From a virus (lineage: Duplodnaviria; Caudoviricetes): a DNA stretch of 64,000 bases. The stretch is from positions 1,769 through 65,768 of IMG/VR virus record IMGVR_UViG_3300020157_000005; one strand, 5' to 3'. The notes under the pieces are model-generated. The model had not been told where the DNA came from, did no database searches, and saw nothing but the letters and a program-made list of their open reading frames with translations. Each line of letters starts with the position of its first letter. Position 1 is the first letter of the stretch. Positions 101 through 19,688 of this stretch are shown piece by piece. A program made the position numbers and the translations under genes.

Positions 101-3100
101 TTAGCTCTTCCTTTTCTTCTTTTTCTTAGTATCTGCTCCACCTATACCGAAGTAGCTAGGACCTCTCATAGCCATCTGACCACCTCCGAATCCACCCATT
201 CCACCACCTGCCATCATCTTACCTCCGTAGTAGTTATTACCATCATCCTTAGTTACTTTTTTCCAGGTCTCTCCGGTTTTTGGATCTTTCCATGACTTTG
301 TTTCTGTAGTTGATTTATCATTAGCTAGTGAACTGATACCATATGGACCATCGTGTGCATATTCGTGATCTGGTGCTATCCTGTGGTAGTTACCATCTTT
401 GTCTTGTATGATATACCCTGTAGCCTTTTCATCAGCACCTAACATCCAGTTCTGAGCCCTTCTCTGTGCCTCTTTACTGGATACAGATTGTGCTGCTCCG
501 AATATACGTTCATTGTGTGCTTCTTTAGCAGCGGCTTGTCTATCCAGTTTCTGTGAGTCCAGTTGTAGGTTCATCGCATCTCTCCTATCCAGTCTTTCTA
601 TATTACGACCCCTTATACCACCTTGGTTTTGTTGGTTGTACTGTAGTTCCTGGGCATCTACCTGTTTCAGTTTCTCTGCCATTTCTCCGGCTATTGCAGC
701 TTGTGCTCCTGGGTTATTAGCAGCGGCTTTCATAGCAGGTCCGTATGCCTGTTGTATATCGTTCTTCTGATTCTGAAATGATATAGAGTAGGTATCTTCG
801 AGGTTAGTACGTGCCTGTAGACTCTGTACAGGGTCTATCTGATCGAATGCACTCATGATCTCCGGTAGGTAGTCAGTTATTCCAGCCCTATTCCGTATTC
901 CCTTATGGGTAGTTGGTCTCTGTGCTGGAGTGTACTTGTTGAGTTCTGCATTAGGAACCTTCATCATACTACCATCTGGACCAGGTTGTGTATTGAGTTT
1001 TTCTCTCTTATTCCAGTCTACTTCAGGTACTGTAATATGTGGGTTGTCATCACCTACTGGTACTATATACGGAGGATATGCTACACTCATGTAGTCAGGA
1101 GGATTAGGTGTCTGTGTATATTTTCCTGCATGTTCTTTTACATTCCTATACCCAGGTCCCCATAGTGCCAGTTTACCTTCTCCTGGTAACTTAGCATTCT
1201 TTCTACCCTGCCCATAGTCTTCAGTGAACATCTCTGGGTTGCTCTTCCTAAGATCTTCAAATTCTGCTATATCCTGAGCTGTTAGTGGTGTATTGTCACG
1301 TTGTGCTGCAGGAACCTTAGCTCCTTTAGCAGCAAATATCATATCACCGGGTACTGTAGTAGGGCTCTTGGTTATATATGACCGTGGTTTACCACCAGCA
1401 CTACCGTCATTGGCCCAGTCCTTTCTCATTGTCATAGGTGCTATATCGTATACAGGTGTTATCTGGCTGTGTTGTGTTGGCATTGCCGGTGTGATCTGTA
1501 GTGGTTGATATAATGACCCTCCTGTCCGATATACTTCTTCTGATGTTTGAGGAGATTGTACATCAGTAAATTGAGGTTTAGTTGCGATGTTATACTCTCT
1601 AGGATATTGAGGAGTTAGAGTTCGAGGATTTATAGGATAACTGGAAGGTTCGCTATAGTGTAAACCTTCTAAAGCACGTATACTCTCACCTCTATCATCA
1701 AGTCCTTGTTCATCATCTTTTGTCCATGGAGTAAACCTCTTCAGTAAAGTTGGGTACTTCACCTGTTCAACATACTCTTGTCTACTTTGAGGTGCTACCA
1801 TTGAAAGTTTGTCATTCATAGGGCCCCCTGCAGCCATCTTGACTCCATACTTTGCTGATAGCTTCTGTGCATCCTTCATGTAGTTACCTACTTTCTTAGG
1901 GTCCATACCCATCTTCTCAGCTATATCATTCTGCATATTCATATCGTCCATTACTAGCTGTTTGGCTGTATCTGTCTTCACTTTATTCTGAGCATATATA
2001 TCTGCCAGCACTTTACCACTGTTAAATGAGGGACCTTGATAGTTAGCTCCAGGTTGGTTGGTGTTGAGTAGGTAGTTCACCTTGGTCTGCATTTTATCAT
2101 TCTTCATCTCTGCCTTGGCTATTATCTCACCCACTTCCTTGTGTTTCATGTTGTTACCTACCTTCACTCCCATTTCAGCTAACTTCATAGCAGTCTCAGG
2201 TAGTGTACGTAGATTACCCAGTACATGCGGTGTACCTGTACGTGGTTCATTGGCTAGTATCTCCCCACCTTCAGCTTCTACATGTGTACCATTAGCATAT
2301 ATCTTTTGCCCGGTTTCTCCATTAGCATCTTCTTCACTGTGCCTATTGCCTAATAACTTGATAGAGTCCGTTGACTGATACTTTGCAGGACCTTGTACAT
2401 GTATTGGTGTATTACTGAAGCCACCTGCATCCATCTTCATGTATCCCCCATTGGCATATTGTTCAGTAGCTCTCATCATAGGGGCTACATACTTATAATG
2501 TTCTGCAAAATACTCTGCATCTGCCTCATTATTGAACTTCATAGCCTCTTTATCCTTTGAACTCGCTTTACTATTATATTGCAGTCCTTTACCCTTCTGC
2601 TGTATGAGAGGTACTGCATATTTGCCCATAGATGCCATGTAATGGGTACCTATACTACCTGCTGGTGGCATCTCCTCATTACTCCAGCTTGGTGCCTGTT
2701 CTTTACCTGTGAATGTATATGACTGTGGATAGTTCTGTACCATCCTGTGAGCTGCTGTATTACCCATAGCATCCGCAGTTGCCATTTTAGACTTCATCAT
2801 ACCTGTTCTCCAGTCATCATCCATCGGTCCACCATCTGCCATGTGTATACTCTTCACAGGATCATCAAAGTAGGTGTTCCTCTTACCTCTGTTGATACTA
2901 TCCGGGAACATCTTAGTACCTGTATATGCCTCTTCACTGGCACCTGATCTAACTGCATCTACAGAGTAACTAGGAGCCGGTGTACCTGTTGATGGTATTT
3001 TCTTACCTCTGGCCTTTGCCTTAGCTTCCTCTAATGTAGGGAACCCTGTAGCTTTCAGCCCTTGTGCTTGAGATACTGTAGATGCCTGTGGGCTATTGAA

Positions 3101-4192
3101 CCCTGTTCTCTCTGGCATATCTACAACAGGGTCCTTAGTAGGATACTGTGGTGATACCTTCTGACTACTATGTGCCCTATCAGTGAATGCTCCTACCTGG
3201 TTAGCTGCTAATGGGTGTGTACCATGCTCTTCAGTATAGTATGGAGTACCCTGTGCATTAACCTGTACATCAGTGTACTTCATCTTACTATATCCTGTTG
3301 TCTTCTTTCCTACCTTACCTTCATTAGCAGATGGTCCGAACTCCTTCTTCACTGTAGGGTCATTGGCACCTTCCTGTTGATACCTGATGATATCACTCTG
3401 TGGTATAGCCTGTGTAGGGTTATTCTGATTCCATTGATCTAGTGCTGCATTATTGAAGTTACCATGGTTGAGTGCGTCTGTACCGTACTGTGGATTGTTC
3501 TGATATTGGTTAGCGTGAAATGCGTTCCACCTATCCCAGTCAAGTGGCTGTTGTGGTTGAAACTGGTTAACATACGGCATCTGTATACCATCTGCTGCTT
3601 TCTTTCCTTTCTTCATCTTACCACCATTAGCATATGCAGCATGACTACCAGTACCCATTGGGTTACTATTGATAGCCATTTGGTATGGGTTAATGTTCTG
3701 ACGTACTGGAGTAGGTGGAGTTAGTACATTAGCTAACTGTGCACCAGCAGCCCACATATCACCAGCATTCCTACCAGCCCATTCACCAAACTGTTGAGCT
3801 CTCTGTCCAAACTTTGATGGGTTTTTTTGTATAGGTTGTACTGCAATATTCTCTGCCGGATTTATGGGAGGGATTGTACCTGGAGGGTTGCCTGGATTCT
3901 TCTTACTACCATTTATATCAGTTTGATCTGTTTCAGGAGCAAACCGTAAATCTCTATGAATATCAGGTGTCATGTATTCACTAGGCCGTTTACGGAGTAG
4001 AGGTTTGTTATTGTTGCTAGACTGATCATTTTTTTCAGTTGTGTCTGGGAGTAATGGCGTACCACTATTTGCTAATGCATACCCATACCTAGCCATTGGG
4101 TGAGCCTTGAAGAAGTGCTCCTCAGTTGGGAACTTCTTGTAGAATGCTGCCTCTGACTTAACCTTAGCTAACTTCATGAATTTGTGTGTCAT
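101..4192 (-). CDS. Large modular virion cargo/ejection protein (crAss-like), 1363 aa
   Basis: Downstream of the muzzle gene, where crAss-like phages encode ejected cargo; VEAEGGE motif, Q/A-rich helical C-terminal region, recurrent xAxGG motifs. Confidence 0.6.
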   Translation of the reverse strand: MTHKFMKLAKVKSEAAFYKKFPTEEHFFKAHPMARYGYALANSGTPLLPDTTEKNDQSSNNNKPLLRKRPSEYMTPDIHRDLRFAPETDQTDINGSKKNPGNPPGTIPPINPAENIAVQPIQKNPSKFGQRAQQFGEWAGRNAGDMWAAGAQLANVLTPPTPVRQNINPYQMAINSNPMGTGSHAAYANGGKMKKGKKAADGIQMPYVNQFQPQQPLDWDRWNAFHANQYQNNPQYGTDALNHGNFNNAALDQWNQNNPTQAIPQSDIIRYQQEGANDPTVKKEFGPSANEGKVGKKTTGYSKMKYTDVQVNAQGTPYYTEEHGTHPLAANQVGAFTDRAHSSQKVSPQYPTKDPVVDMPERTGFNSPQASTVSQAQGLKATGFPTLEEAKAKARGKKIPSTGTPAPSYSVDAVRSGASEEAYTGTKMFPDSINRGKRNTYFDDPVKSIHMADGGPMDDDWRTGMMKSKMATADAMGNTAAHRMVQNYPQSYTFTGKEQAPSWSNEEMPPAGSIGTHYMASMGKYAVPLIQQKGKGLQYNSKASSKDKEAMKFNNEADAEYFAEHYKYVAPMMRATEQYANGGYMKMDAGGFSNTPIHVQGPAKYQSTDSIKLLGNRHSEEDANGETGQKIYANGTHVEAEGGEILANEPRTGTPHVLGNLRTLPETAMKLAEMGVKVGNNMKHKEVGEIIAKAEMKNDKMQTKVNYLLNTNQPGANYQGPSFNSGKVLADIYAQNKVKTDTAKQLVMDDMNMQNDIAEKMGMDPKKVGNYMKDAQKLSAKYGVKMAAGGPMNDKLSMVAPQSRQEYVEQVKYPTLLKRFTPWTKDDEQGLDDRGESIRALEGLHYSEPSSYPINPRTLTPQYPREYNIATKPQFTDVQSPQTSEEVYRTGGSLYQPLQITPAMPTQHSQITPVYDIAPMTMRKDWANDGSAGGKPRSYITKSPTTVPGDMIFAAKGAKVPAAQRDNTPLTAQDIAEFEDLRKSNPEMFTEDYGQGRKNAKLPGEGKLALWGPGYRNVKEHAGKYTQTPNPPDYMSVAYPPYIVPVGDDNPHITVPEVDWNKREKLNTQPGPDGSMMKVPNAELNKYTPAQRPTTHKGIRNRAGITDYLPEIMSAFDQIDPVQSLQARTNLEDTYSISFQNQKNDIQQAYGPAMKAAANNPGAQAAIAGEMAEKLKQVDAQELQYNQQNQGGIRGRNIERLDRRDAMNLQLDSQKLDRQAAAKEAHNERIFGAAQSVSSKEAQRRAQNWMLGADEKATGYIIQDKDGNYHRIAPDHEYAHDGPYGISSLANDKSTTETKSWKDPKTGETWKKVTKDDGNNYYGGKMMAGGGMGGFGGGQMAMRGPSYFGIGGADTKKKKKRKS

Positions 4193-4195
4193 AGT

Positions 4196-7105
4196 CTAAT
4201 ATTTTGATAACCACTTCTTGTTAATTGCTCCACCGTATTGTTTCTTAACTGGATTTGCCGATGGTATAATACCTGTATTTTTGTAAAAACTATTAACCTT
4301 GTTTATTAAACTGCTCTGTTTTTTCTCATCTTCTATCCTCTTTTGTCCAGATTTTGAGTACTTCCTAAAAGGGTGTTCGTTATCTTCTCCGCTTCCAGAT
4401 GTAATGTAACCATTCTTATAGAGACCATATGCACCAATAACCCCTAAAGCCCCTGCTTGTACTTTAGCAAGATTCACTAAAGTCTTTCTCATCGCATGTG
4501 CCCGTGCTATTCTTTGAGAGAGTTTATACTGTTCATCTTCAAGAGCATATCTCTTATTCATTGATTCATCGTATGCTTTTCTTTCAGATACAGTATATTT
4601 TTCAACTTTACCTTTTCTTATTGCATATTGAGCATTCAGTTGACTTTTAACATCTAATAGCCGTTTATTCATAATTTCATCTGCGCCATTAAGAATATTT
4701 GTGTACTCCTTAAACTTACCCACACTCATAGTTTTAAGGTCAGAGGTTGAACGCATTGTTTGATGCATTGCCTGTCTCCTTTGTAGTAATGATTTAGTGG
4801 AGGGCATATCCTTACTTAAAGCATATAATAAAGCATCTACTCTATCATCAAAATTACCTAATGTAGATGCGTAGGATGAATTTCCATATGTACCATTTGT
4901 TACAACTCTAATACCCGTTGCTTTAGATACTTCATCAAGTACAGCCTTAGCTTGAGGTTTATTTGCAAGGTGTTCTATGAGTGTTCCTGGACTTCTTACA
5001 TTTGCCAAACCCCATTCAACTCCATGGTCTTCCATTATATTCGCTACCTTTGTCGCCTCATCTGCAGTAAACTTTATTTTCCCATCAGTGGCTTTTCTTA
5101 TACTTAATGTATAGGAGAGAGGGTCTTCTTTATTTAAAAGATTATTTATACTAACTTGTTTATGACTGTATACAGCCATACCATGCTGTGAGTCACCGAG
5201 GAGAACGTGATTTAATCCAGCCCCCATATTCTGTCCTCCCTTACCTGGTGCCCAATTCTTTAATGCCTCCTCTATATTATTATCGTTATTAACACTTCTA
5301 CTCAGTGTAGTTTGGTTCATAAAAAAGTCATTCAATACAAGTTGCATCCTCTTAGGATCTGCTGCAATATGTTCATTGTTTCCAATGAAGTTCATTGAGT
5401 TAAGTATTTTATGATTATTTTCAACATCAGATAATTGAGCTGGATCAAATTGGTGACCAATGTTCCCCTTGGAACCAACTAGTTTCTGCATATATTGTTT
5501 CTGTGCCTCCAATACTTTATCAGGGTCTGCAAGATGTATATACTGATCAATCTTTGTTATATGCTTATTTTTAGTACTTTCATAAGCATCCATTATAGTC
5601 TTGATTGTAGGATCCGTCTTTGCAATAAGTTCATCAGCTGTATACGGAATGTGTAGCGGTTTGTCTGTCTTAATACTATTCCTTGCTGCTTCTGCAAACT
5701 CATCTGGAGCAAATTGATGGAATAACTCACTAGCCCTGTCTCCTGTCGCATAACCATTCTCATCTTGTTCAATTACATTGAAGTCAATTTCTCCAGCTTT
5801 ACCTAACTTAGAATCTATTGTATGTGTTTGTGCCAGACCCGTATTCTGAATAAATGGTAACTTATCCTTTACATTCTTATCATAGTTTGTTTTGGATATA
5901 AGTACATCATAATCTCCAACCACATGAGGGAGGTCTGCACTGGCTACACCTTTGGCAGATCCAAACACCTTTCCCCCGGTCAAATTCTCAATGTGATCTA
6001 CATTACTCTTTACTGTGTTATGATAGTTATTTTCAATACTTACAGCAGAAATACTCTTATTTTCTGTAGTTACCTCTTTTCCTTTATTTGTAAACTCAGT
6101 TACAGTTGAAGGCAGTTCTATTTTAGGAGTTACTACTTCTCCTGTCTTGAAGTTTATAATAGGTGTCCCAGTAGTTGGTTTACCAAAAGTTTCATTTGCA
6201 AATGCTATCTTCCCATCATCAGTTATACTTGCTGCCTCTTTAATGGTACTTGCATTACTTATAGCCTTCTCCTTAGCATAAATACTATTATAAAGTGGAT
6301 TTATACTGTTGCGATTATCTGAAAGCTGGTTAAGCATACCATCCAGCTTATTTTCCTTTATATTTAATGCATATCGAGCTTTATTTATTTCATCAACTGC
6401 TTCCCTATGTTTTTGATACAGGTTCTCAAAGTCCTTATCTAAACCACTTATCTTGTATGGAGTAGCCGCATCTTTTACAGATTGAGGTATTGCATCAATA
6501 GTTTTTTCCCCATATTTTTTTAACCAGTTTGGTAAAAATGAAGATTTCGCTACCTGAGTACCTTCAGGAAGATATGATGCAGTTTTTGCAGCAATAGCCG
6601 CATTTGCTTTTATATAACCTTTTGCTGCAGTTTTTCCTAAATTGTATAACCCTTCAGCACCTTCAGCAGCAGTACCTGCATCAATTATCTTTTCTATAAA
6701 TTCATCAGCTCTTTGACCTTTGTTGTCTTCTTTTGCCCATTTGGTGTATCCTATAGGATTACCTTGATCATCTCTTCCTGCATCCCTGTTCATCTCATGC
6801 AATCTTTGTGCATGTTCTTCTTGTCCATATGGTGTATATACCGGTGCTGGTCCCATATGCTGAGACATAATATATTCTTGTTGTTTCTGTATATCAGCTT
6901 GTACAGCTTCATCATCAGCTCTTTTCTGAGTATACTTCAATAATGCATCAACTTGTTTCTGGGACATCTTTTGACCAGGTACATTAGCAGTAGTTGTTCC
7001 TACAGATATACCTCGTATTGGTTGTGTAGGTACAATAGCAGTTTGGTCAGGACTCCATTGGAGCTTGTCACCATCTTTAGCATACTTTGTTAACCACTTT
7101 GCCAT
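4196..7105 (-). CDS. Putative cargo protein with a Pol-beta-superfamily nucleotidyltransferase-like domain, 969 aa
   Basis: VFGS-x14-DYDVLI followed by EIDFNV; coiled-coil flanks; short hydrophobic stretch near the C-terminus; KWLTKY/KWLSKY at the termini. Confidence 0.55.
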   Translation of the reverse strand: MAKWLTKYAKDGDKLQWSPDQTAIVPTQPIRGISVGTTTANVPGQKMSQKQVDALLKYTQKRADDEAVQADIQKQQEYIMSQHMGPAPVYTPYGQEEHAQRLHEMNRDAGRDDQGNPIGYTKWAKEDNKGQRADEFIEKIIDAGTAAEGAEGLYNLGKTAAKGYIKANAAIAAKTASYLPEGTQVAKSSFLPNWLKKYGEKTIDAIPQSVKDAATPYKISGLDKDFENLYQKHREAVDEINKARYALNIKENKLDGMLNQLSDNRNSINPLYNSIYAKEKAISNASTIKEAASITDDGKIAFANETFGKPTTGTPIINFKTGEVVTPKIELPSTVTEFTNKGKEVTTENKSISAVSIENNYHNTVKSNVDHIENLTGGKVFGSAKGVASADLPHVVGDYDVLISKTNYDKNVKDKLPFIQNTGLAQTHTIDSKLGKAGEIDFNVIEQDENGYATGDRASELFHQFAPDEFAEAARNSIKTDKPLHIPYTADELIAKTDPTIKTIMDAYESTKNKHITKIDQYIHLADPDKVLEAQKQYMQKLVGSKGNIGHQFDPAQLSDVENNHKILNSMNFIGNNEHIAADPKRMQLVLNDFFMNQTTLSRSVNNDNNIEEALKNWAPGKGGQNMGAGLNHVLLGDSQHGMAVYSHKQVSINNLLNKEDPLSYTLSIRKATDGKIKFTADEATKVANIMEDHGVEWGLANVRSPGTLIEHLANKPQAKAVLDEVSKATGIRVVTNGTYGNSSYASTLGNFDDRVDALLYALSKDMPSTKSLLQRRQAMHQTMRSTSDLKTMSVGKFKEYTNILNGADEIMNKRLLDVKSQLNAQYAIRKGKVEKYTVSERKAYDESMNKRYALEDEQYKLSQRIARAHAMRKTLVNLAKVQAGALGVIGAYGLYKNGYITSGSGEDNEHPFRKYSKSGQKRIEDEKKQSSLINKVNSFYKNTGIIPSANPVKKQYGGAINKKWLSKY

Positions 7106-10100: not shown

Positions 10101-12104
10101 TGATATACCGAGCACTTCCTTGGTTATTATTTTCTCACCCGCATTATCCTTCACAGGTACGAAGTGGGCAGTACAGTTACCATACTCAGCCGTTTCCAAC
10201 TTCAGGAAAGAACCCTGTATACCTGCAGATTGATAGAAGTGTGTATCAGGTGAATGGAATGTGAACCGGTTACGTTGGAAATCATTCAACCTATTAGCAG
10301 CATTGTCACCTGACTTATCCTCTACAGGTTGTGATGATATGAATGGATCAGGGCGCACATCATTGAATGGGTAATTGGCATAGAAGTAATCCGCACCTTC
10401 CTTCTGGTAATGACCACAGTTGAATAACAACCCCTTAGCTATTATAGACCGGTTAGCACCTCTATCACCTCTCATTATCTTGAACCCTACTATAGCATTC
10501 TTCTGTGCCTGTGTAAGGGATGAAGTCGCTATAGCATTCTTCAATGAGTCAATATCTACTAGGAACCCTATTGGATATACATTACCTACAGCATCATGTA
10601 TGTGTGTTACAGTACTATCTGGGAACTTATGGTGTCGTATAGGTTGATTAGCTAATGGTCCCCATATATTAGTATTAGCAGGGTATACATCAGTGCTCTC
10701 CCAATAGGACATGGTACCATGTTCCCACGGCTTAATACCAGTACATGGATCAGTAGCACCGGGTAAATGGCCTGTGGGTGTTCCTGTGTTATATACCTTC
10801 CATCTAGGGAGTACCGGAGATGGGCATGTGCCTTCCTCTATAGCTACTACATCCTGGTTATATACTACAGGTACTAGATCAGAAGGTATAGCTGCTCTAC
10901 CTGGTATATGACACCTTGTAGATTGTTTCCCGTTATTGAATAGTAGACATAACTCAAGTGGATACACTTCATCCCTGAAGTACCCTTCATAGTTAGCGCA
11001 TACTACTCCATTAGAGTACCCTATCTCCTGTTGTCCATATGCACCTGCAGGTACTTGTGACGTACCCCATCCTACTACTATCTGTGATGCTATCTGTTGA
11101 TAACTGATATCCTCTTCCTTCACCAGATCACCCCATACTAGCACATCATCCACCTGACACAATGTACCAGCTATATCATAGTATTCGAACTGTTCCATAA
11201 CTTCTGTCATAGTTATAGGAGTATTCACATTACTCTGTTCCAGTCCGGTATATGTATGGGTATATGTGCTGGTCTGTATATGATAGGTACCTACATATTC
11301 TGGTGTAGTTACAGAGTTGATTGTCTTGATCACTACCAGGTTGAAATAGCTATATAACCCTGATGTATCCAGATTACTGATATCTACTTCTATAGCATGA
11401 TTGGTTAGCAGGTTAGTATCCAATGATGTCTTCCCTTCCAGGAATATGCGAACAGGGTTAGTGACACTATAGAATCGTGTTAGGCCATTACTACGTACAT
11501 CAGCATACTGTATACAGAACTGGTAGTCGCCTTCTATAATATTACCTCCTACAGCTATTCTATTGGTTTTTATATTCGGTATAAGGAATGTAGGTTGTAC
11601 ATTCATCATATTGGTATCTACAGCAGTAGTGCCAGGGTAGAATGGCAGGTTATTGAGATCAATATACCTACGCACATTATACCTATCTGTGAAGTAGAGT
11701 TGTGTACTACAATTAGTGGTCTTTACTTCCGTCTTGAGTATAGGATGTTGTATAGACCAACCGATAACATCAGAACCAGCAACAGTGTCATCTATTAATA
11801 TATTGAATGTGCATTGTGTATTAACCACATATCCGAACATACTATACCCTGTAGTAGGGTTAGTGAGATAGTAGTAGGTGTTGTTGAGTTGTACTATATT
11901 ACGTACACCTATTGCCTTATAACCGGTAGGCAAGGTAATACATGCTATAGACCCCTCTTCATTCTGATAGGTTACCTGTTGTCCATCTATAGCACTATTA
12001 ATAGCGTTGAGTGCTTCGGTAATATACCCCGCACCTATCTCATCAATAACACTATCAGTGTTAAGTCCTGCACGACATTGTATAGGAGTATTGTTAATAG
12101 CCAT
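7122..12104 (-). CDS. Tail stabilization/muzzle protein (P22 gp10-like, crAss-like), 1660 aa
   Basis: Size, N-terminal GLNTD...ALNA...QNEEG signature, C-terminal WISWHSYIP motif, position after ring and IHF genes. Confidence 0.8.
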   Translation of the reverse strand: MAINNTPIQCRAGLNTDSVIDEIGAGYITEALNAINSAIDGQQVTYQNEEGSIACITLPTGYKAIGVRNIVQLNNTYYYLTNPTTGYSMFGYVVNTQCTFNILIDDTVAGSDVIGWSIQHPILKTEVKTTNCSTQLYFTDRYNVRRYIDLNNLPFYPGTTAVDTNMMNVQPTFLIPNIKTNRIAVGGNIIEGDYQFCIQYADVRSNGLTRFYSVTNPVRIFLEGKTSLDTNLLTNHAIEVDISNLDTSGLYSYFNLVVIKTINSVTTPEYVGTYHIQTSTYTHTYTGLEQSNVNTPITMTEVMEQFEYYDIAGTLCQVDDVLVWGDLVKEEDISYQQIASQIVVGWGTSQVPAGAYGQQEIGYSNGVVCANYEGYFRDEVYPLELCLLFNNGKQSTRCHIPGRAAIPSDLVPVVYNQDVVAIEEGTCPSPVLPRWKVYNTGTPTGHLPGATDPCTGIKPWEHGTMSYWESTDVYPANTNIWGPLANQPIRHHKFPDSTVTHIHDAVGNVYPIGFLVDIDSLKNAIATSSLTQAQKNAIVGFKIMRGDRGANRSIIAKGLLFNCGHYQKEGADYFYANYPFNDVRPDPFISSQPVEDKSGDNAANRLNDFQRNRFTFHSPDTHFYQSAGIQGSFLKLETAEYGNCTAHFVPVKDNAGEKIITKEVLGISFAVACLSTISIELQNNNSTTTGTEDLTTTNTHFQPKLDIQNFIPTYNAMLEVLTKLVPYFNYGWQYNGLGQYNNYTVIPDDVGNKIRYIQHGGYVNSGINSTFGDTFQLNNTDRESSVYISVNSVLPYTHQQVNTSGLLLGIPQDTSRTTAGEAGVCNQSNPFTREVSSYYCSLKRQLDDQYGEIFSYQPVDTGTQGRLTDTSIPIVYGGDCFINQFALKIKQAFYLKSTVNRPDGYDINYNQDAFSHTNTGNIGYPIYYYSTDNETLAGDNPFGPGLTNLSSLFNTPGHIALLILTGGLALVAVMLQLVAELFGSVFFQSFGLKITNLECNNYGTVDLYERGMAYLYAYGVINYYCESEVNVSMRQAYNIREGNFWPNVGTGIPDEWLQETNVPIAFDNTYTYNKTYSGQNKQTAFTTLRPDWAPDQVCYIDYNNRAIWSDKSSLEETKNNYLVYRPGNLFDFPKKFGTLQALDTLEGRTVLVRYQNDFEMYNALATVDTSSITAVLGTGALFSGSQPVQINKTDIGFLGTQNKFLLNTEQGHVWADVLRGKIVLMRGTSVEELSGPKYLNSKYFQDNLPFQILNTFPNYPIDNNFNGIGIHGTYDNFYKRLLITKIDYSILPGTGLQYDGTNFYINNTLSKTTPAPTPGIPVVTCCPDYYTLAPADFPPQYIGCYPNEGGDAILPISCGVNSGISGTATCCPEGYEYVRVKPIDTICWNPRTDDIVPPFVCPTPTVTNTSTEKIIIQLGDPEYFCNKSLTMSFSFISNSWISWHSYIPNYYVEHTNYFQAGYNSGTPDVWDHNSTFVLYQTFRGVEYPYILEAPFIYKYDDQIFQGIQDYLTVLKYTSPTLYNELDGCVYFNKIVAYNNQQNTGTCVVVPKDENNLYTYRQYPIYNPTNTAILVEKVDHIYNTNMYWDKVKDTNQPIWETTCDPTQGRKVLVDNNLDYGVRSFRKYQLRAKDMKLRRVLDNNNSLKFLSRFTITQTQDSK

Positions 12105-13051
12105 TACCGGTATCTACCTCTTTGTACCCGTGTTGTTGGTCCAACCAACAGGAACCTATTGTTACGGTTATATGATCGTATTATGCTCTTTTGAAACTCA
12201 TAACTATCTCCAGCTATTGCATAGTTCTTAGCATTGATGTATGCTGTATCCATTCTACTCTCTGCATCATCCCTCTTAGCTCTTATCTGGTTGAATGTTT
12301 CATCAGTGGACTGGTTGAATAACTGCTGATATACCATGAACCGGAGATACTGATACAGGTACTTCTGAAATGGGTCATTATCAGGTATCATATAGTAACC
12401 AGTCTCAGGGTCAACTGCTCTTGTAGCATAGTATGCCATGTAGATAGTACCAGACTGAAATGAAGTCATCATATGATTACCTATTATATCAAATGTATCT
12501 AATGCACTGCTGGATATATTAGGGCAATCTGCATGACAACTACCCATTGTTGCGAAGTTACCTGGCTTCAATAGACAACTAACAGAGAATGTAAATGACA
12601 GTTGGCTCATTACCTTGTTGGTGACTATATAGTTATCAGGTACTCCGCATAGTGAAGGGAGATTAACCGGCTGCTGTATATGTGTAGAACATGGATACCC
12701 GGGAGTACAACTATTACACTTCTCTACTTCATATGGTGCTACTCTGCAATCAGTCTGATAGTAGAATACATGTGGTGATATGATAGGACCTTTACTATAG
12801 GTTGCACACATCCACACCTCTCGTACCTGATAGAAGTCACAAGGTAGATCACAGCGACCATTCCACATATCCATAACACATGGTTGTATAGGACGGTACG
12901 TGTTCTCCATCTTATCAAGGCAATCTGCAGTCCATATTGGGAATAGAAGGTCATCAATCGAGCCTGTGTTGAAATAGTCCCGCATCTCTTCCTTTACCCT
13001 GGAATAGATAGCCTCTGGTGATATATATCGTGTAGGACTTCCGTTTGTCAT
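12104..13051 (-). CDS. Tail ring/tubular protein (P22 gp4-like) with Cys-rich insert
   Basis: Immediately precedes the muzzle gene; YISPEAIYSRVKEE N-terminus and GxxMIPD motif as in crAss-like ring proteins. Confidence 0.6.
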   Translation of the reverse strand: MTNGSPTRYISPEAIYSRVKEEMRDYFNTGSIDDLLFPIWTADCLDKMENTYRPIQPCVMDMWNGRCDLPCDFYQVREVWMCATYSKGPIISPHVFYYQTDCRVAPYEVEKCNSCTPGYPCSTHIQQPVNLPSLCGVPDNYIVTNKVMSQLSFTFSVSCLLKPGNFATMGSCHADCPNISSSALDTFDIIGNHMMTSFQSGTIYMAYYATRAVDPETGYYMIPDNDPFQKYLYQYLRFMVYQQLFNQSTDETFNQIRAKRDDAESRMDTAYINAKNYAIAGDSYEFQKSIIRSYNRNNRFLLVGPTTRVQRGRYR

Positions 13052-13569
13052 TTCTTTCTTTTTGCGAATGGTATATACAACTGCTTATACAACTCTCTGT
13101 ATGGTTCATTATCACTTAGTATATGTTCACTCAGTAACTTTCTATTAGCCTTCATCATGTCCAGTCTCCATATAGCCTTATGCTTTATCTTGGACATACT
13201 CTTTATCCATTTGAAGTTATATCGCCTACCTTCAGTGTGGTGGTTAGTCCAGTATACCAGGTTGCCTTGTGCCATTGACTCCTTCCAATTAACACCCATT
13301 CCCTTTCTGAATGCCACCCCTCTCTTATCTCCATTGGTCTTTACACACAATTTGCCTAGTCCATGAGGTAATGTAACCATGTGCCCCGTCTTCAGTATGT
13401 GGTCAACATAGTGTGCATTGAGATCTATTATACACTGGTTATATTGAACGTATGTTAGTTTCACTCCAGGATTACGTTCCATGAATAGTGCATAACAGTC
13501 CTTAGAACCGGTTAGTATATCTCTCTTTGGTCTACCTCCATGGTACTGTCCAGCGAAGTTGAATGCCAT
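13048..13569 (-). CDS. HU/IHF-like DNA-binding protein
   Basis: Basic protein with ILKTGHMVTLPHGLGKLCVK HU-like beta-arm; conserved crAss-like position in the tail module. Confidence 0.6.
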   Translation of the reverse strand: MAFNFAGQYHGGRPKRDILTGSKDCYALFMERNPGVKLTYVQYNQCIIDLNAHYVDHILKTGHMVTLPHGLGKLCVKTNGDKRGVAFRKGMGVNWKESMAQGNLVYWTNHHTEGRRYNFKWIKSMSKIKHKAIWRLDMMKANRKLLSEHILSDNEPYRELYKQLYIPFAKRKK

Positions 13570-13573
13570 ATAT

Positions 13574-14332
13574 TTATTTCGTATTATCTTTTCCTAATGG
13601 TGCATTATCATTATCTGCTGACCTCTTGTACCTATTAGACAATTTCTCTGCCACCGCCTTTATTACAGGATCTATTAGGTATCCAGGGCATTTAAATTCC
13701 TGATCATAAGGGTTAGGGGGACAGCATAGGTTCATATCATTTATAGATACTTCATCAGATGCAGAACAACAACCTATTGCTAATGGGCTATTACAGTAAC
13801 CTGGATACCACTGTAGGGACTCTGGTACATCCTCTTCGAAGTATGCTGATATCTTCACCTTCTGTATACTATCACTACCTATGTAGAGGAACCTATTCTG
13901 TATCCAGAAGTGTATCTGATTTGTTTTCAACCCTAGTGACAATGAGTTAACGAACCTATCCGGAGTACTCTCTATAAACCTTCTGGATATTAGGTCAATA
14001 GAATATACCCCTTGTATGAGCATCCCAAAGTTGTTACCTTCGGCTATCTTAGGAAGTTGTACTACAGAGCGTGATATGATGTAATCTGACCGATATCCAC
14101 AGCACTCTGCTATTGATACCTGCTTCATCTTCAGACAAGGTAGTACAGTGAATATGTTAGGGGAGTTCCATAGCTTCCTTCTATCAGTGACCTGACGTAC
14201 ATATGCAATGGCTGTAGACTGTAACTCGGATAGAATGAATCTATCTGATATATTCTGGGTAGTTGCAGAAGACTGGAGTTTAAACTCTCCACGAACAGTA
14301 GCTATTGCCTCTTTGTTACTCCTCTTGACCAT
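13574..14332 (-). CDS. Tail ring/structural protein
   Basis: ISDRFI N-terminal motif, LPCLKM..V...ECC, YDQEFKCPGYL; synteny with crAss-like ring genes. Confidence 0.55.
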   Translation of the reverse strand: MVKRSNKEAIATVRGEFKLQSSATTQNISDRFILSELQSTAIAYVRQVTDRRKLWNSPNIFTVLPCLKMKQVSIAECCGYRSDYIISRSVVQLPKIAEGNNFGMLIQGVYSIDLISRRFIESTPDRFVNSLSLGLKTNQIHFWIQNRFLYIGSDSIQKVKISAYFEEDVPESLQWYPGYCNSPLAIGCCSASDEVSINDMNLCCPPNPYDQEFKCPGYLIDPVIKAVAEKLSNRYKRSADNDNAPLGKDNTK

Positions 14333-14403
14333 ATAGCAAAGTTATTACAGATTGATATAAGTTGGTTAGGTTATTGGTAGTTTCCCTAACTCATCAGGTT
14401 AGG

Positions 14404-16248
14404 TTAACTTATTATTATACCAGTTAATGTGCACCATACCTCCAGTTGATAGTCCGAATATAACATTACTCCATTAATAAGGGTACCGTATCTCCAGTTA
14501 ACATAGTATGTGTCTGCAGATTGAGATGCAAATGTTGCCTGTGGATTCAATCCTGTAGCTGTCTGATTATCTACTAGTATATCATCACTGTCAAATAGTT
14601 GGTACTCGATAGTATCTATAGTAACTAATGAAGGTTGACTGACAGATATAACACCCGCTACAACTACTGCTGTAAGTGTCTGACAGTTATACCGGATAGC
14701 CTCGTATATATTACTATTAGCAACATCGCCTGAACATACACTATCTATCTGAAACTGGTATACTGTATTATTATCTAGGCTACCTACAGATGTAGTAGTA
14801 GCTGCAGTTAGTAATGGGTTAGGTGGTGTGAAGTTAACACCAGTTATCCATTCTGTGAATCCTCTCTGACGGTATTTAGCTATCTGATAAGAAGCTGTAC
14901 CACTAGGTACCCAGGAAAGATCGAATGACCCCATCCCTAATACTACCAGTAGATCAGATATATTATCACATAGACAACCAGTGCAAAGTTCCTTCAATGC
15001 GCAGAACTGTGCTAATAGATCAGGGTCACTGCTGATATATGAGAATAGGTTAGTAATAAATGAAGTAGGATCAGTTACATTCGGTATAAGCTGTAATTGA
15101 CTATTATCCGGTGTAGGTGTTGATGTAATAGATATACCCCAGTCTCCAGACATTGATGGTATCTTAGCCTCCAGGTAACCTGCAGTAGTATCTGATGCAT
15201 TCACCTTCACCTTATTATCTACAGGAGTAGTGACGGTCATGTTCAACTTATTACCGGTGATAGCCATAGTTATACTACTATCAAGGCTCTCTACCTTCTG
15301 ATCCAGGAAGTCAGCATCAGCAGTAGTATCACCAGATGATAGCATCACTTTGTATAACCCATCCCATGTATCATCTATAGCTACTGATACACCAGCACAA
15401 CCACCTATAGCTGCTGTAGTAAGCCCTGTACCAGCAGCAGTAATATAATTAGTATGGACTGCTGAAGCTGATGTAATAAGAGCCTGTATAGTATCCTGTA
15501 GATCAGATTGAGGTATAATACATCCCCATGTTATAGCACCTGTATCAAATGTTGGTAATGTTGTGCATATGTATGTAGTAATATACCCTACAGTAGTAGC
15601 TATAGTATCAGTAGCACCACCACCTACAGTAGCCAGACAGTTTCCACTGTTGTCGAATGTTCCTATAGCTGCCTGTTTCCCAGATACTGTAGTAGTTAGG
15701 CTACCTAAGTAACTGATAAGTGCATTGAATGCATTCAATATGTTAGTTGGTGTACTAATAGACAGTGACCCCCATGTGTTACCAGGAGCTGCCAATAGGT
15801 TGAGTATACTACCCACTCCAGTATAAGTAGCAGTAAGTACCTGGTTACGGGTCATTCCACTTGTAATAACTATAGAACCACCACCTGCAGTTACTGAGTA
15901 TGTAAGAGCCGGTGTCTGTAATGCAGATATAGCAGCTCCTAATACTACTACATCACCTGCATAGGTAACATTAATGAAGTTGTCCAGGTTGTACTGATCA
16001 ATGTCAACTATCTTGGAAATACCCTCCACAAACTCCTGTATAGTACTAGGTACACCTCCAGTAGTCGTAGTTACTGTATATCCATTATAGGGGCCATAGT
16101 TAAACCCACTGAAGTTAGGAGATGGGTTCAGGTTATTAACAGCAGTGTTGATCTCCCCCAGTATCACATCCAGTGTCTGGTTAGGTGTTACCCCAATGTA
16201 TGGAAGTGCTAGGCCGGTATATATTACTGTAGAGGCATTAGTAGGCAT
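14404..16248 (-). CDS. Tail fibre/structural protein with C-terminal fibronectin type III-like domain
   Basis: T/G-rich; KVKVNASDTTAGYL repeat-type motif; LSWVP...YRQRG...LDNNTVYQFQIDSVC FN3 pattern. Confidence 0.6.
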   Translation of the reverse strand: MPTNASTVIYTGLALPYIGVTPNQTLDVILGEINTAVNNLNPSPNFSGFNYGPYNGYTVTTTTGGVPSTIQEFVEGISKIVDIDQYNLDNFINVTYAGDVVVLGAAISALQTPALTYSVTAGGGSIVITSGMTRNQVLTATYTGVGSILNLLAAPGNTWGSLSISTPTNILNAFNALISYLGSLTTTVSGKQAAIGTFDNSGNCLATVGGGATDTIATTVGYITTYICTTLPTFDTGAITWGCIIPQSDLQDTIQALITSASAVHTNYITAAGTGLTTAAIGGCAGVSVAIDDTWDGLYKVMLSSGDTTADADFLDQKVESLDSSITMAITGNKLNMTVTTPVDNKVKVNASDTTAGYLEAKIPSMSGDWGISITSTPTPDNSQLQLIPNVTDPTSFITNLFSYISSDPDLLAQFCALKELCTGCLCDNISDLLVVLGMGSFDLSWVPSGTASYQIAKYRQRGFTEWITGVNFTPPNPLLTAATTTSVGSLDNNTVYQFQIDSVCSGDVANSNIYEAIRYNCQTLTAVVVAGVISVSQPSLVTIDTIEYQLFDSDDILVDNQTATGLNPQATFASQSADTYYVNWRYGTLINGVMLYSDYQLEVWCTLTGIIIS

Positions 16249-16249
16249 A

Positions 16250-16855
16250 TTACATGTAGTTTAGTAGTAGTAACTTGAATGTTGTATTAGGGTCAGCATA
16301 TTGTATTGGCATGAATGTAATCATATTGCATGGTGGAGTTATTGGTGTATCCTCACAACAGTCAGTACATTGTCGTTTAGTGAAATCGTAAGAGAATGAT
16401 ATAGGTATTCCATCACTCGTACATGTACCACATTCGAATATTGCAGGTTCCACACAGTTACAATCCAAACAAGGTATAGTAGGCTCATCCCTCTTAGTAG
16501 TTGGACTAGAACATAGTCCTGTGAGTGTAACATATTGATACCCTGGAGGACAGCATAAACAGGTTACAGTATCTACAGGAGCATCTGGTAATATGCCCCA
16601 ATTACTATTAACTACTGATACACATTGTCCTATGAATGGTGTTATATCAGGGTTGCCTAATGTCAATATAACTCCACCATATCCTACAAATTGACCAGCT
16701 CCATTGATGAATGTGTAACCAACAGGGCAACATTCTGAAGTAGGACAGGGTATAGCATCTACCTGCTCTCGAATAGAACAACCTGTCTGTGGAGATGGGC
16801 AGCATTTCCCACTTCCTACATACTGATAACCTTCTGGACAACATGTATTAGCCAT
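16250..16855 (-). CDS. Cys-rich structural protein with three CCPxGY modules
   Basis: TCCPEGYQY, ECCPVGYTF, LCCPPGYQY; in-strand within the tail operon. Confidence 0.6.
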   Translation of the reverse strand: MANTCCPEGYQYVGSGKCCPSPQTGCSIREQVDAIPCPTSECCPVGYTFINGAGQFVGYGGVILTLGNPDITPFIGQCVSVVNSNWGILPDAPVDTVTCLCCPPGYQYVTLTGLCSSPTTKRDEPTIPCLDCNCVEPAIFECGTCTSDGIPISFSYDFTKRQCTDCCEDTPITPPCNMITFMPIQYADPNTTFKLLLLNYM

Positions 16856-16857
16856 AG

Positions 16858-18081
16858 TTAGAACATTCGTTGAATATATAATACCCCTGTAGAGGGTTGC
16901 ATGTTATTATGTGATCCATTACCACCACTGGCATATGCTCCTGTTAGTGTGATGCCTGTAGTGCTCCTGGATATGTATGCAGTGACATCCGAAGGTGTCT
17001 TGGCTACAAATGGTGCTACTCCCCCTGTGTTATTACCAGATACTCCCGGAACTAATGCCCCTGTAGCATCCATCGCATTATTAACTGAACTACCGTTCCT
17101 ATCCACATGCTGCTGTCTATTGAAGAAGAATGCATGATCATGGCCTTGATCATTCAATGTACCTCCTAATGGCAATGATGGTATCTCAGCCTGTAACAAC
17201 GTATGACGAGGTTCACCAACCTGTTGACCAGTAACGGTGACAGATAACCCAGTAGCATTAGATGGTAATGAACCACCCATACCAATATCAGTACGTCCTA
17301 CAGGTACCTGGCCCATCATATTCACAGTACCATTCTGGCCGTTAGCTATATTCCATCCACACATAGGAGTACCGGATATACCGACTCCTCCAGAGAAATT
17401 AGTCACAGGTCCTGCATAAGGGATGATAGCACCCACAGGTACAAAGCCATTGAAGGTAAATTGAGTGGATGCTCCTGTACCTGTACGTGTAACACTGGGA
17501 CCGGATATACCAGAGCATGAGGTTATAGCAGTTGCCAAAAAGTTACCTATAGTAGTATCAATACCGGTAGTGAATGATGTAACCGTACTATCCAATATAT
17601 TGAATGCTGACAACAGAGAGCAGAACTCTGTTATAAGTTGTTGTAGTACTAGATTAATGAGTGATGAACTATTGACACCGGTTAGACACGCTGTATTATA
17701 TCCACTGAGTATAGGACCTATCTCGTCCTTTATAGTACTGACATCATCATAGAGTGTACATATAGCTGTCCTATAACATTCCAGTAGGCATGGTAGATCA
17801 GTACAAGTACCACAGCAAGAGATGCAATCAGCAAAAAGTGGAGCACAAGAGCCAGTAGTAAGGTTAACAGTAGGCAGTCCTGTAACAGGATCTGTCATAG
17901 ATATTCCAATTCCATGAGCATAATCAAATATCTTCTGTAGTATAACAGCATCAACTTCAGACAGATAATCACCAGTACATATACCCAATGCAGGTATAGC
18001 AGGTCCAGTGTACTTTACACCAGTATCGGGTATTTGTTTTTCGAAGTAGTTACTACAGCTACTATTACATGCATGTCCCAT
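16858..18081 (-). CDS. Tail fibre protein with phage tail-collar domain
   Basis: VPVGAIIPYAG...GWNIANGQNGTVNMMGQVPVG...GEPRHTL...HNNMQP tail-collar signature. Confidence 0.8.
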   Translation of the reverse strand: MGHACNSSCSNYFEKQIPDTGVKYTGPAIPALGICTGDYLSEVDAVILQKIFDYAHGIGISMTDPVTGLPTVNLTTGSCAPLFADCISCCGTCTDLPCLLECYRTAICTLYDDVSTIKDEIGPILSGYNTACLTGVNSSSLINLVLQQLITEFCSLLSAFNILDSTVTSFTTGIDTTIGNFLATAITSCSGISGPSVTRTGTGASTQFTFNGFVPVGAIIPYAGPVTNFSGGVGISGTPMCGWNIANGQNGTVNMMGQVPVGRTDIGMGGSLPSNATGLSVTVTGQQVGEPRHTLLQAEIPSLPLGGTLNDQGHDHAFFFNRQQHVDRNGSSVNNAMDATGALVPGVSGNNTGGVAPFVAKTPSDVTAYISRSTTGITLTGAYASGGNGSHNNMQPSTGVLYIQRMF

Positions 18082-18353
18082 TAGCAGGTTATTTTCTTTA
18101 TCTTATTAATAATATATAGTATGTACTCATTATCCAGGCAATTACATCCCATCAACTTATCTACCAGTATCTCCCTATAGATACACAGTACATCATACTG
18201 TGTCATATCTACATAGTTCTGGAACCCATACACCTGGTTAGTATATTGCATCTCAGATAGATATAGAATAGTACGGTCAATATCCAGTATCAACTCATTG
18301 TACCCTTCATTATCTAGCCGGTTGTCTGTTAGTATTGGGTTGATTAGATACAT
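18081..18353 (-). CDS. Small structural protein (tail hub-associated?)
   Basis: In-strand, overlaps the next start codon; position only. Confidence 0.5.
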   Translation of the reverse strand: MYLINPILTDNRLDNEGYNELILDIDRTILYLSEMQYTNQVYGFQNYVDMTQYDVLCIYREILVDKLMGCNCLDNEYILYIINKIKKITC

Positions 18354-18474
18354 TGATCGGTTGTCTTAGTTTCTCGTTATGGTTCTTATTGCAGTCTGGA
18401 CATCTACCCTGTGTCAATTGGCACTTTGGTAATGTTCTTGGACAGTCATTGCACTTAGTAGCTCCGCATCCCAT
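18310..18474 (-). CDS. 54-aa Cys-rich (CxxC...CxxC) miniprotein not in the ORF track
   Basis: Hand translation MGCGATKCNDCPRTLPKCQLTQGRCPDCNKNHNEKLRQPINVSNQPNTNRQPAR*; fills the gap between two in-strand genes. Confidence 0.6.
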   Translation of the reverse strand: MGCGATKCNDCPRTLPKCQLTQGRCPDCNKNHNEKLRQPINVSNQPNTNRQPAR

Positions 18475-18484
18475 CGTATATAGT

Positions 18485-19084
18485 TTAGCATATGTTACAT
18501 CCCAGTGGTGCTTTAGGCCATTGGAACCCTTTGAACTTCTTTCCTATACCATTCAACATAGTATCAGCTCTCTTATATAGTTGCTCTGATAGTGCATAGT
18601 TACTATCATTACATGCTGCTACTGAACCATCTATGAATAACTTGATCATTCTGAGTTCACCCATATATGTATTCCAATTATGATCATGACATACACATTC
18701 GAGGTCTATCTTCAGGAATGCGTGTTGGTACTTGCACTTTATGTGGTCTATCTTAATGAACTTCTGGTTGATAGTAGTAGCTGTGAATGTCTGACCAGGT
18801 GCCGGTGATACTGTGTATACTACAGCATATATACCATCTGGTAGTGGTGTGCAATCCGTATCTCCACAGGTTAACCCAAGATCGGCACATTGGTATACAT
18901 TCACCTGTCCGGGTGTAAATGCTACTGACAATGTAGGATAACTAGGAGGAGTGATCTGCATGTTATAATTAGGAGCTACCGGCAGTGTTGTATAGGTACT
19001 GACATCACTAATAGCAATTATCGAACTACTACGTAAGTCGATAAGTGACAGCAAGAGGTTAGGAAGTTGTAGTACGTATCCCAT
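18485..19084 (-). CDS. Structural protein, crAss-like tail hub type
   Basis: LPDGIYAVVYTV motif followed by a helical C-terminus; position after the auxiliary capsid gene. Confidence 0.55.
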   Translation of the reverse strand: MGYVLQLPNLLLSLIDLRSSSIIAISDVSTYTTLPVAPNYNMQITPPSYPTLSVAFTPGQVNVYQCADLGLTCGDTDCTPLPDGIYAVVYTVSPAPGQTFTATTINQKFIKIDHIKCKYQHAFLKIDLECVCHDHNWNTYMGELRMIKLFIDGSVAACNDSNYALSEQLYKRADTMLNGIGKKFKGFQWPKAPLGCNIC

Positions 19085-19085
19085 A

Positions 19086-19688
19086 TTAGTTAGTTAATGC
19101 GGTGTATATATCTGCAGTATGTTGTATTCTCTCACTAAGTCCTAGTTCCCCTCCGTTAACATGATGAGTTACTATAGTAACAGTAGCCACATCAACTCCC
19201 TTATCACAGAAATGCCATAGGTTATTATGTTGGAAAAAGAATGCCCCAGATGCTAATTGATAATCAGTAGCTACCAGATCAGGGTTATTCAACAGATCAA
19301 CCCCAATGTATTCTCCCAATGCCTTATAGTTATCATGCCCTGTAAGTTGTAGAGCTCCTCTGCCTCGATACTTCCAACCATCACCACTTACTTCATCTCC
19401 ATTACCCATCCTATTGGCGTATATCCTATTAGCTATACGTTCAGGTTGTCTATGATATGAATGAGCATCATTGATATCAGCAAAGTGCTTATGAAACAAT
19501 GACCATAGAGCGTCACCAGAGTAGTTAAGGTTCTCTATGAACCTAGTCCAGTTAGCACATTCATGCTGACATTGTCCTAGTAGATGTGATAACCGAAGTG
19601 GGCCATCTATATCAAATGGTTCCAATATTCCAACTATCTGGTCATATATACTATCTGGTACTACTCCTTGAAGGTTCTCTATATTCAT
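19086..19688 (-). CDS. Glycoside hydrolase family 19 endolysin
   Basis: [54 protein letters not shown]. Confidence 0.92.

Follow-up and report, generated by a model that had tools for sequence, protein, structure and literature searches.

A Gly-Gly junction motif at the module borders of a mosaic protein encoded at the putative cargo locus of a crAss-like phage

A stretch of 64,000 nucleotides from a virus of the Caudoviricetes (Duplodnaviria) was analyzed (IMG/VR record IMGVR_UViG_3300020157_000005, positions 1,769 to 65,768; the whole stretch is called the window). We concentrated on P0001, a protein of 1363 amino acids (aa) encoded on the minus strand. Judging from its sequence and its gene neighbourhood, P0001 is probably a mosaic virion protein of a crAss-like phage which resembles in layout the cargo protein C1 (gp45) of crAss001. 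The main result is that a short peptide motif, an aromatic residue or methionine followed by two variable residues and Gly-Gly, is enriched in P0001 and marks the borders of its modules: copies coincide with the limits of domains, of insertions/deletions (indels) and of blocks of homology. We propose, with a probability of roughly 0.55, that this motif is a junction or hinge peptide kept at the protein level, making the modules of a packaged ejection protein swappable; the hinge function, the packaging and the ejection are the parts of this proposal that we infer.

The motif was counted in a general form, [YMFWH]-x-x-G-G, and in the stricter form [YM][AD][ANDG]GG, which had been noticed in an earlier reading made from the letters alone (the sequence-only reading). 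P0001 contains 9 copies of the general form for 1.45 expected, 6 copies of the stricter form for 0.04 expected, and 6 copies of a form with a hydrophobic residue at +2 for 0.36 expected. None of these three counts was reached in 5000 shuffles, so that the motif is indeed commoner than composition predicts, a check which the sequence-only reading had called for. GG alone is only mildly raised (16 for 10.1 expected, 177 of 5000 shuffles reaching 16), and the tail region of the protein is glycine-rich, as if a glycine- and methionine-rich protein had yielded these pentapeptides by accident. In P0001, 9 of the 16 GG sites have one of Y, M, F, W or H at -3, residues whose background frequency is 0.144 (binomial P 1e-4). 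A logo built from 234 GG sites in 17 proteins of the family shows M, H, Y or F raised 3-5x at -3 and M, I, L or V raised 2.5-4x at +2. Motif density reaches 6.6 per 1000 aa in P0001, about 12 times that of the 37 other open reading frames (ORFs) of at least 150 aa in the window (8 copies in 14,823 aa, or 0.54 per 1000 aa; four antisense ORFs overlapping larger ones, out of 42 listed, were excluded). With density, flank and breakpoint statistics also contrary to it, a chance origin is hardly credible, and it was rejected on the shuffles (0/5000).

All the copies given for the 1363-aa protein in the sequence-only reading were recovered (Table 1; YYGG and MMAGG/MAGGG occupy aa 1320-1331, positions 203-235), and two others can be added, YRTGG and FGIGG (aa 1348-1352). 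The variants AADG (aa 199-202) and AAKG (aa 954-957), mentioned in the same reading, are present as well. At the place where P0001 reads FAAKG, its relative P0005 reads FAAGG.

The correspondence between motif and module borders was established with two relatives, P0004 (89% identical to P0001) and P0005 (75%). The two largest indels among the three proteins (158 and 108 alignment columns) begin and end within motif copies: aa 452-580 of P0001 are missing from P0005, and in P0004 their place is taken by an unrelated block; aa 789-890 are missing from P0004. The presence or absence of blocks among relatives, which had been suggested as a check, follows the motif in these two large events. The same borders appear in DNA. 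The gene of the window was aligned with its homologue in L001, a complete relative of 111.4 kb with terminal repeats; the homology blocks stop or resume at aa 455, 578, 792 and 890, each breakpoint being at most two codons from MADGG, YANGG, MAAGG or YRTGG. At one junction, a piece of 15 nt in the L001 gene can be aligned with either motif copy of the window gene.

P0001 can be divided into four units or more, among them module A, domain B, cassette C and a helical C-terminal domain (Table 1). It matched no Pfam and no PHROG family and carries no recognisable enzyme, effector or peptidase domain; the sequence-only reading had supposed effectors that would act ahead of any expression of phage genes. 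Module A is the globular unit of about 125 aa which the sequence-only reading had supposed between MADGG and YANGG, and it turns out to be a real domain. A phmmer search of 1.84 billion representatives retrieved it in 385 metagenomic cluster representatives at E<=1e-3 (230 at E<=1e-10), in proteins of 120 to 2507 aa where the block may stand at any position. Its core is modelled by AlphaFold2 (AF2) with a predicted local distance difference test score (pLDDT) above 90 (model residues 31-130; alignment of 30 sequences). The three motifs that flank it fall in segments with pLDDT from below 50 up to 58, the YANGG/MDAGG stretch (aa 579-591) being at about 48-58. At E<=0.001, Foldseek retrieved nothing similar to the model from PDB or BFVD, and the module had no usable match in ESM Atlas, no Pfam family and no tblastn match in 50,697 GenBank phage records.

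Among the best 150 of the 385 matches, the motif is found on the C-side of module A in 106 of 128 cases and on its N-side in 83 of 141, for 9% of the other 37-aa windows of the same proteins (1622/17,871). The C-side window spans -12 to +25 aa of the C-end of the domain, and domains not covering query positions 15-112, or with an independent E-value above 1e-5, were dropped. The motif density of these 150 proteins reaches 580, compared with 120 +/- 12 in shuffles. Of 3149 clustered internal ends of BLASTP blocks among 176 proteins, 436 have a motif at most 5 aa away, for 153 +/- 12 at random. The claim that the motif delimits modules is thus upheld by the low-confidence flanks of the folded domain, by the indel ends and by the counts around module A.

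Domain B lies between MDAGG and MAAGG in a second AF2 model whose mean pLDDT is only 52; the same model predicts disorder for cassette C and for much of aa 775-1103. A search with this second model gave no Foldseek match at E<=0.001 in PDB. The conserved N-terminal start of the family was also recognised, by eye, in P0007, P0008, P0009, P0012 and P0019. Proteins that share module A include some with ART-PolyVal (2/45), lysozyme, SLT, YkuD and PG_binding domains, and one of them, P0013, carries SET and DUF6782, a putative metallopeptidase.

What is kept at the borders is the peptide. Glycine codons vary by copy (GGT GGT, GGT GGA, GGG GGA, GGT GGC, GGG GGC, GGA GGG), and so do the residues at its variable positions, which indicates that selection acts on the peptide and not on the DNA. 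No single copy appears to be essential, since copies come and go among close relatives: the one at aa 187-191 exists in P0001 only, and one at aa 40-45 in P0004 and P0005 only. The sequence-only reading had also considered the motif as a recombination joint. In a DNA-level version of this idea, the coding sequence would be a recombinase site or hotspot and the peptide a by-product; the four borders of the two cassette events, all within two codons of a motif, and the 15 nt that align to both copies would be expected. The codon differences at nearly every copy, the divergent variable positions and the conservation of the peptide across proteins less than 50% identical make it very improbable, and in-frame survival is explicable without a DNA-level repeat. 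A recombination site in the DNA was rejected on the variation of codons from copy to copy. Of the recombination claim there remains that breakpoints fall in the motif; no conserved DNA site accompanies them, at most G-rich microhomology.

The window was assigned to a crAss-like phage by its matches to Pfam Crass_capsid, P22-like portal, CrAss_Ring_2 and CrAss_Ring_1, all on the minus strand; its source record is a fragment of 65.8 kb, estimated to be 59% complete. In the direction of transcription the genes are ordered ring 2, ring 1, muzzle-type protein, P0002 (the 969-aa neighbour of P0001) and P0001, and the window ends before the downstream genes. The muzzle-type protein has 26-27% identity, over about 90% of its length, to gp043 of Cellulophaga phage phi17:2 and to a csAssE-Sib protein whose record bears the note 'Muzzle protein'. 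The downstream side is provided by L001, where a muzzle gene is followed by a 900-aa gene, the P0001 homologue (89% identical), a 931-aa gene and a gene related (E 3e-12) to crAss001 gp47, a putative RNA polymerase subunit. The same order is found in phi17:2 (gp043, gp042, gp041, gp040, gp039). In crAss001, according to the structural atlas of this phage (PMC10172136), the cargo proteins gp45 (C1) and gp46 (C2) are encoded at the matching position. Because L001 and phi17:2 share the muzzle-to-gp47-like gene order, P0001 and P0002 are placed by synteny at the crassvirus cargo position, that of gp45/gp46. The gene of P0001 lies in the block bounded by the muzzle gene and, as seen in L001, by the gene of the gp47-like virion RNA polymerase, and the cargo locus announced in the sequence-only reading is borne out by ring 2, ring 1 and muzzle upstream and the gp47-like gene downstream. 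Searches by tblastn of P0001 against GenBank phages and by megablast of the region gave no match, and phmmer with P0001, P0002 or the muzzle-type protein as query returned no significant match among PDB sequences.

Table 1. Features of the window, with positions in the 64,000-nucleotide stretch
Feature	Positions	Strand	Basis or remark
P0001, 1363 aa, mosaic protein at cargo/ejection position (by synteny)	101-4192	-	ORF; 9 junction-motif copies
Glycine-rich stretch with 3-4 motif copies, then lysine-rich tail, aa 1320-1363	104-235	-	sequence
Helical C-terminal domain, aa 1104-1259, common to whole P0001 family	416-883	-	AF2 helices, pLDDT 68-89; invariant alignment columns
Motif copy YRTGG, aa 888-892, right border of cassette C	1517-1531	-	alignment and DNA homology; not in sequence-only reading
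Cassette C, aa 791-887, without counterpart in P0004	1532-1822	-	predicted disordered, pLDDT about 30
Motif copy MAAGG, aa 786-790, left border of cassette C	1823-1837	-	alignment and DNA homology
Domain B, aa 595-774, beta strands then helices	1871-2410	-	AF2 pLDDT 60-88; family profile matches E 1e-30 to 1e-90
Motif copies YANGG (aa 579-583; 2444-2458) and MDAGG (aa 587-591; 2420-2434)	2420-2458	-	between module A and domain B; DNA homology to L001 resumes at aa 578
Module A, aa 456-577 (P0020), mobile domain	2462-2827	-	phmmer, AF2, comparison with P0004/P0005
Motif copy MADGG, aa 451-455, left border of module A	2828-2842	-	pLDDT <50; DNA homology to L001 ends at aa 455
Motif copy YANGG, aa 187-191	3620-3634	-	no copy here in P0004 or P0005
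Conserved N-terminal ~40 aa of P0001 family	4073-4192	-	nearly invariant in P0001/P0004/P0005 alignment
P0002, 969 aa, neighbour of P0001	4196-7105	-	ORF; 0 junction-motif copies
Muzzle-type protein, 1660 aa	7122-12104	-	phrog_37948, E 2e-103; directly upstream of P0002 in transcription direction
Ring 1 tail ring gene	12104-13051	-	Pfam CrAss_Ring_1, E 1.7e-9
Ring 2 tail ring gene	13574-14332	-	Pfam CrAss_Ring_2, E 3e-13
Crass_capsid gene	22894-24450	-	Pfam
P22-like portal gene	25843-28509	-	Pfam

Some other genes of the window were recognised. A 200-aa protein within the structural block (19086-19688, minus strand) matches Glyco_hydro_19 (chitinase class I / lysozyme-like, E 1.8e-10) and is likely a cell-wall hydrolase. 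A 902-aa protein (33022-35730, minus strand) with a DUF5907 repeat (E 1.8e-12) probably belongs to a tail fibre or spike. On the plus strand (38687-39394), where structural genes on the minus strand give way to replication genes on the plus strand, lies the gene of a 235-aa protein whose weak matches to DUF2726 and REase_MTES_1575 indicate a nuclease-like fold; the sign of the GC skew reverses near 40 kb.

The crAss001 protein gp45 offers a structural view of the motif. In the atlas (PMC10172136), a helix bound to the tail barrel (aa 214-245) and a portal-bound domain (aa 425-552) are modelled in virions, and the authors propose that one gp45 chain spans tail and capsid. Compared with these limits, GG copies of gp45 are present at aa 206-210, just before the helix, at aa 260-264, 329-333 and 370-374, and at aa 425-435 (427-428 and 434-435), where a GG-W-L-...-GG stretch forms the first residues of the portal-bound domain; further copies stand at aa 559-563, just after this domain, and before the basic C-terminal tail. 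The Pfam family crAss_CARG1 (PF25725) covers aa 424-555. Three separate modules of gp45 are shared with module-A proteins, namely P0101 (E 7e-27), P0145 (E 1e-17) and P0023 (E 3.5e-10), as found by a single round of phmmer; iterated jackhmmer drifted across modules and was discarded. We also observed that aa 375-424 of gp45 (crAss001 gene 11988-14516) are a small module that recurs in several P0001-family and module-A proteins (P0006, P0007, P0010, P0011 and P0023), running from I-K-x-K-x-x-N-K-G-K-F-T... to ...K-R-A-x-F-A-Q-N-A and always lying between GG copies.

On profile evidence, domain B of P0001 is possibly a remote relative of the portal-binding domain of this cargo protein 1. With domain-only profiles, hhalign of domain B against a CARG1-like set gave a probability of 62.9% (E 7e-5, 69 columns); with the whole family alignment the probability was 10.8% (E 0.0028). 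BLASTP of P0001 against gp45 gave a best E of 0.23, and Foldseek with the second AF2 model did not find 7QOG, the PDB entry of C1. A mid-domain profile matched neither gp45 nor P0145 at E<=0.01, and profiles of the C-terminal part, the N-terminal part and aa 120-300 found nothing among crAss001 or phi17:2 proteins. Complex prediction for domain B and the portal (residues 150-800) gave no answer (score 0.00, mark 0.32) and speaks neither for nor against binding.

The explanation that we favour is as follows. P0001 would be a chain of modules that evolve independently, some of them folded and others disordered, connected by a peptide made of an aromatic residue or Met, two variable residues, Gly-Gly, one variable residue, and an aliphatic residue or Met. 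This peptide may serve as flexible hinge and standard connector. Any two junctions would be compatible in frame and in structure, and recombination could delete, insert or swap whole modules while leaving the neighbours unharmed; this would explain the clean loss and replacement of cassettes. The protein would be packaged uncut, and its hinges would permit segment-by-segment threading through portal and tail.

Several results weigh against this explanation. A large majority of homology-block ends (86%) are not at a motif, and cassette C and other stretches between motifs are predicted to be disordered, not folded. The strict form of the motif is not enriched in gp45 (3 copies for 1.44 expected; 87/500 shuffles). 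Pfam crAss_CARG1 matched none of 13 P0001-family members at E<=1, which leaves homology of P0001 with C1 unproven, and packaging of P0001 is deduced from the position of its gene. The muzzle protein of csAssE-Sib (gene 11959-18732) has 5 copies for 1.9 expected (13/400 shuffles), so the motif is not exclusive to proteins of the cargo locus, and FpV4 and Lbo-JY46 showed no motif enrichment at this locus. Finally, the motif is in excess at protein termini: 59 of the 150 module-A proteins have GG among their final 12 aa, compared with 8.8% of internal windows, and 22 carry the motif among their first 20 aa, compared with 6.4%. A passive hinge leaves this excess unexplained. The tails after the last GG fall into few recurring types, which points to a function of the peptide itself. 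Thirteen of the 150 proteins end with GG and a six-residue tail C-[TVA]-[IV]-V-K-L; other ends are W-L-D-K-Y-N/K or short basic tails.

Terminal forms are also conspicuous in P0002. The sequence-only reading had this 969-aa neighbour start with YAKDG and end with KKQYGG. Both strings are present, but P0002 has no copy of [YMFWH]..GG (0.51 expected), YAKDG (aa 8-12) is without GG, and KKQYGG is followed by AINKKWLSKY and is not the protein end. W-L-x-K-Y stands at both ends of P0002, at aa 4-8 (7082-7096) and aa 965-969, and in the C-terminus (aa 956-969, positions 4199-4240) YGG precedes the final W-L-x-K-Y. Nine relatives were examined, eight homologues plus the 900-aa ORF of L001. The family starts with M-A-K-W-L-x-K/R-Y, mostly followed by x-x-G-G, and M..W-L-x-x-Y-x-x-GG or a near form opens 7 of the 9 relatives. 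In all nine, [YL]GG occurs within the last 15 residues and is followed by a short tail, which contains W-L-x-x-Y in seven of them, as in P0002 itself. Some relatives repeat an internal composite unit GG-W-L-x-x-Y-x-x-GG. One P0002 relative, P0175, has a YkuD L,D-transpeptidase domain.

Such ends are what a packaging or docking tag, akin to the head-targeting tag of the sequence-only reading, would look like, the motif, above all in its end forms, binding the procapsid interior, the portal or a scaffold and thereby loading the attached module. The capsid-targeting sequence of T4 internal proteins and the cargo-loading peptides of encapsulins would be parallels in principle. The excess of motif at both termini of module-A proteins, the recurring tail classes, W-L-x-x-Y next to GG at both ends of the P0002 family, and some stand-alone module-A proteins in which the motif lies 5-10 aa from the start with nothing upstream to link all fit this idea, and the ordered portal-bound segment of gp45 (PMC10172136) opens with GG-W-L-...-GG (aa 425-435). 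Most copies are internal, however, with many per protein; single copies are present in one close relative and absent from another, several of the stand-alone module-A proteins lack GG at their end, and the binding partner is hypothetical. We consider a tag unlikely, yet a serious competitor of the hinge. A wider conjecture, which we put forward only tentatively and hold to be possible at best, is that GG junctions and W-L-x-K-Y ends together form an address label of crassvirus-type particles: the modules they flank would be docked to the portal or the capsid interior, loaded, and possibly released later by an unrecognised peptidase. If true, it would mean plug-and-play packaging of variable effector sets, in these phages and in the hundreds of metagenomic protein clusters with this junction grammar, and the label would be usable to load foreign proteins into phage heads.

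The sequence-only reading had also put forward a maturation-protease site. P0001 would then be a polyprotein, a peptidase of phage, host or in-protein origin cutting after GG and releasing modules in the head or after ejection. The occurrence of the motif on both sides of modules and at protein ends, as if each cassette had its own sites, agrees with this, and some module-A proteins carry a putative metallopeptidase (DUF6782 in P0013). Several GG-specific proteases of viruses and bacteria have sites of a similar kind, GG with a hydrophobic residue after it. The adenovirus protease consensus has its hydrophobic position four residues before the cut; that of the motif is five residues before the putative cut. 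No protease family was recognised in 26 ORFs of the window. Peptidase_S78, C48, ClpP and C39 were found neither in the record of the window nor in the complete 111.4-kb relative (0/2 records each), in a search that did not include Adenain (C5), C63 or novel proteases and in which S77 was uninformative, its control finding nothing. Motif copies are also lost in close relatives. Two GG copies of gp45 (aa 427-428 and 434-435) lie inside the segment 425-552 modelled in virions, and the crAss001 atlas (PMC10172136) mentions no protease, cleavage or proteolysis. Cleavage at GG is not supported by these results, a cut made after ejection or by an unrecognised enzyme being still conceivable, and we regard the polyprotein as a distinctly improbable alternative to the junction peptide.

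With respect to known systems, viral polyproteins and precursors cut at GG (adenovirus protease, African swine fever virus pS273R, Ulp1-like and C39 proteases) likewise have GG with nearby hydrophobic residues between functional units. P0001 and its phage differ from them by another hydrophobic spacing and by the absence of such a protease in the C48 and C39 searches. A similar layout is that of C1 (gp45; PDB 7QOG and related entries): like P0001, it is a long, mostly unannotated mosaic at the muzzle-to-gp47 position with a basic C-terminal tail, it has GG copies at the borders of its two solved segments, and it shares modules with module-A proteins. It differs by its size (842 aa for gp45, 1363 aa for P0001) and by the absence of the 969-aa gene which separates the muzzle gene from that of P0001. 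The positional counterparts of P0001 in phi17:2 (gp041) and csAssE-Sib (a 946-aa protein) are annotated as virion structural or structural protein. Both are motif-rich, with 5 copies for 0.8 expected in gp041 (0/1000 shuffles) and 5 for 0.64 in the 946-aa protein (0/400 shuffles), the latter having also a basic end similar to that of P0001. The locus is syntenic between L001 and phi17:2 (muzzle-like protein, protein of ~740-900 aa, motif-rich protein, protein of ~930-970 aa, gp47-like protein); neither phmmer nor the C-terminal family profile connects gp041 itself with P0001.

Few proteins of very abundant viruses are as large, or as poorly annotated, as the cargo and ejection proteins of crAss-like phages. 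A simple and statistically strong rule by which aromatic/Met-x-x-G-G-x-aliphatic peptides form the joints would allow these proteins to be cut into units for clustering, folding and testing. It also accounts for the fast change of content between close relatives, and raises the testable question of how proteins are selected for packaging and pass through the tail. Literature searches on the motif strings and on proteolysis of Crassvirales cargo returned nothing relevant, supplementary files and figures being outside their scope; within the literature searched, the junction grammar is not in print.

The last comparison concerns the polyvalent proteins of phages and conjugative elements. In their description (Iyer et al. 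2017, PMC5512222), these proteins assemble many unrelated domains in one polypeptide, shuffle them rapidly and are thought to be delivered with the DNA. The full text of PMC5512222 mentions neither linker, glycine nor crAss, and the junction motif is not part of its description. P0001 has their multi-domain, variable architecture, with modules gained, lost and swapped among P0001, P0004 and P0005, but not their effector domains (ART, nucleases, methylases, peptidases), which are found only in other module-A proteins. We take P0001 for a variant of the known polyvalent and cargo proteins, set apart by its junction motif.

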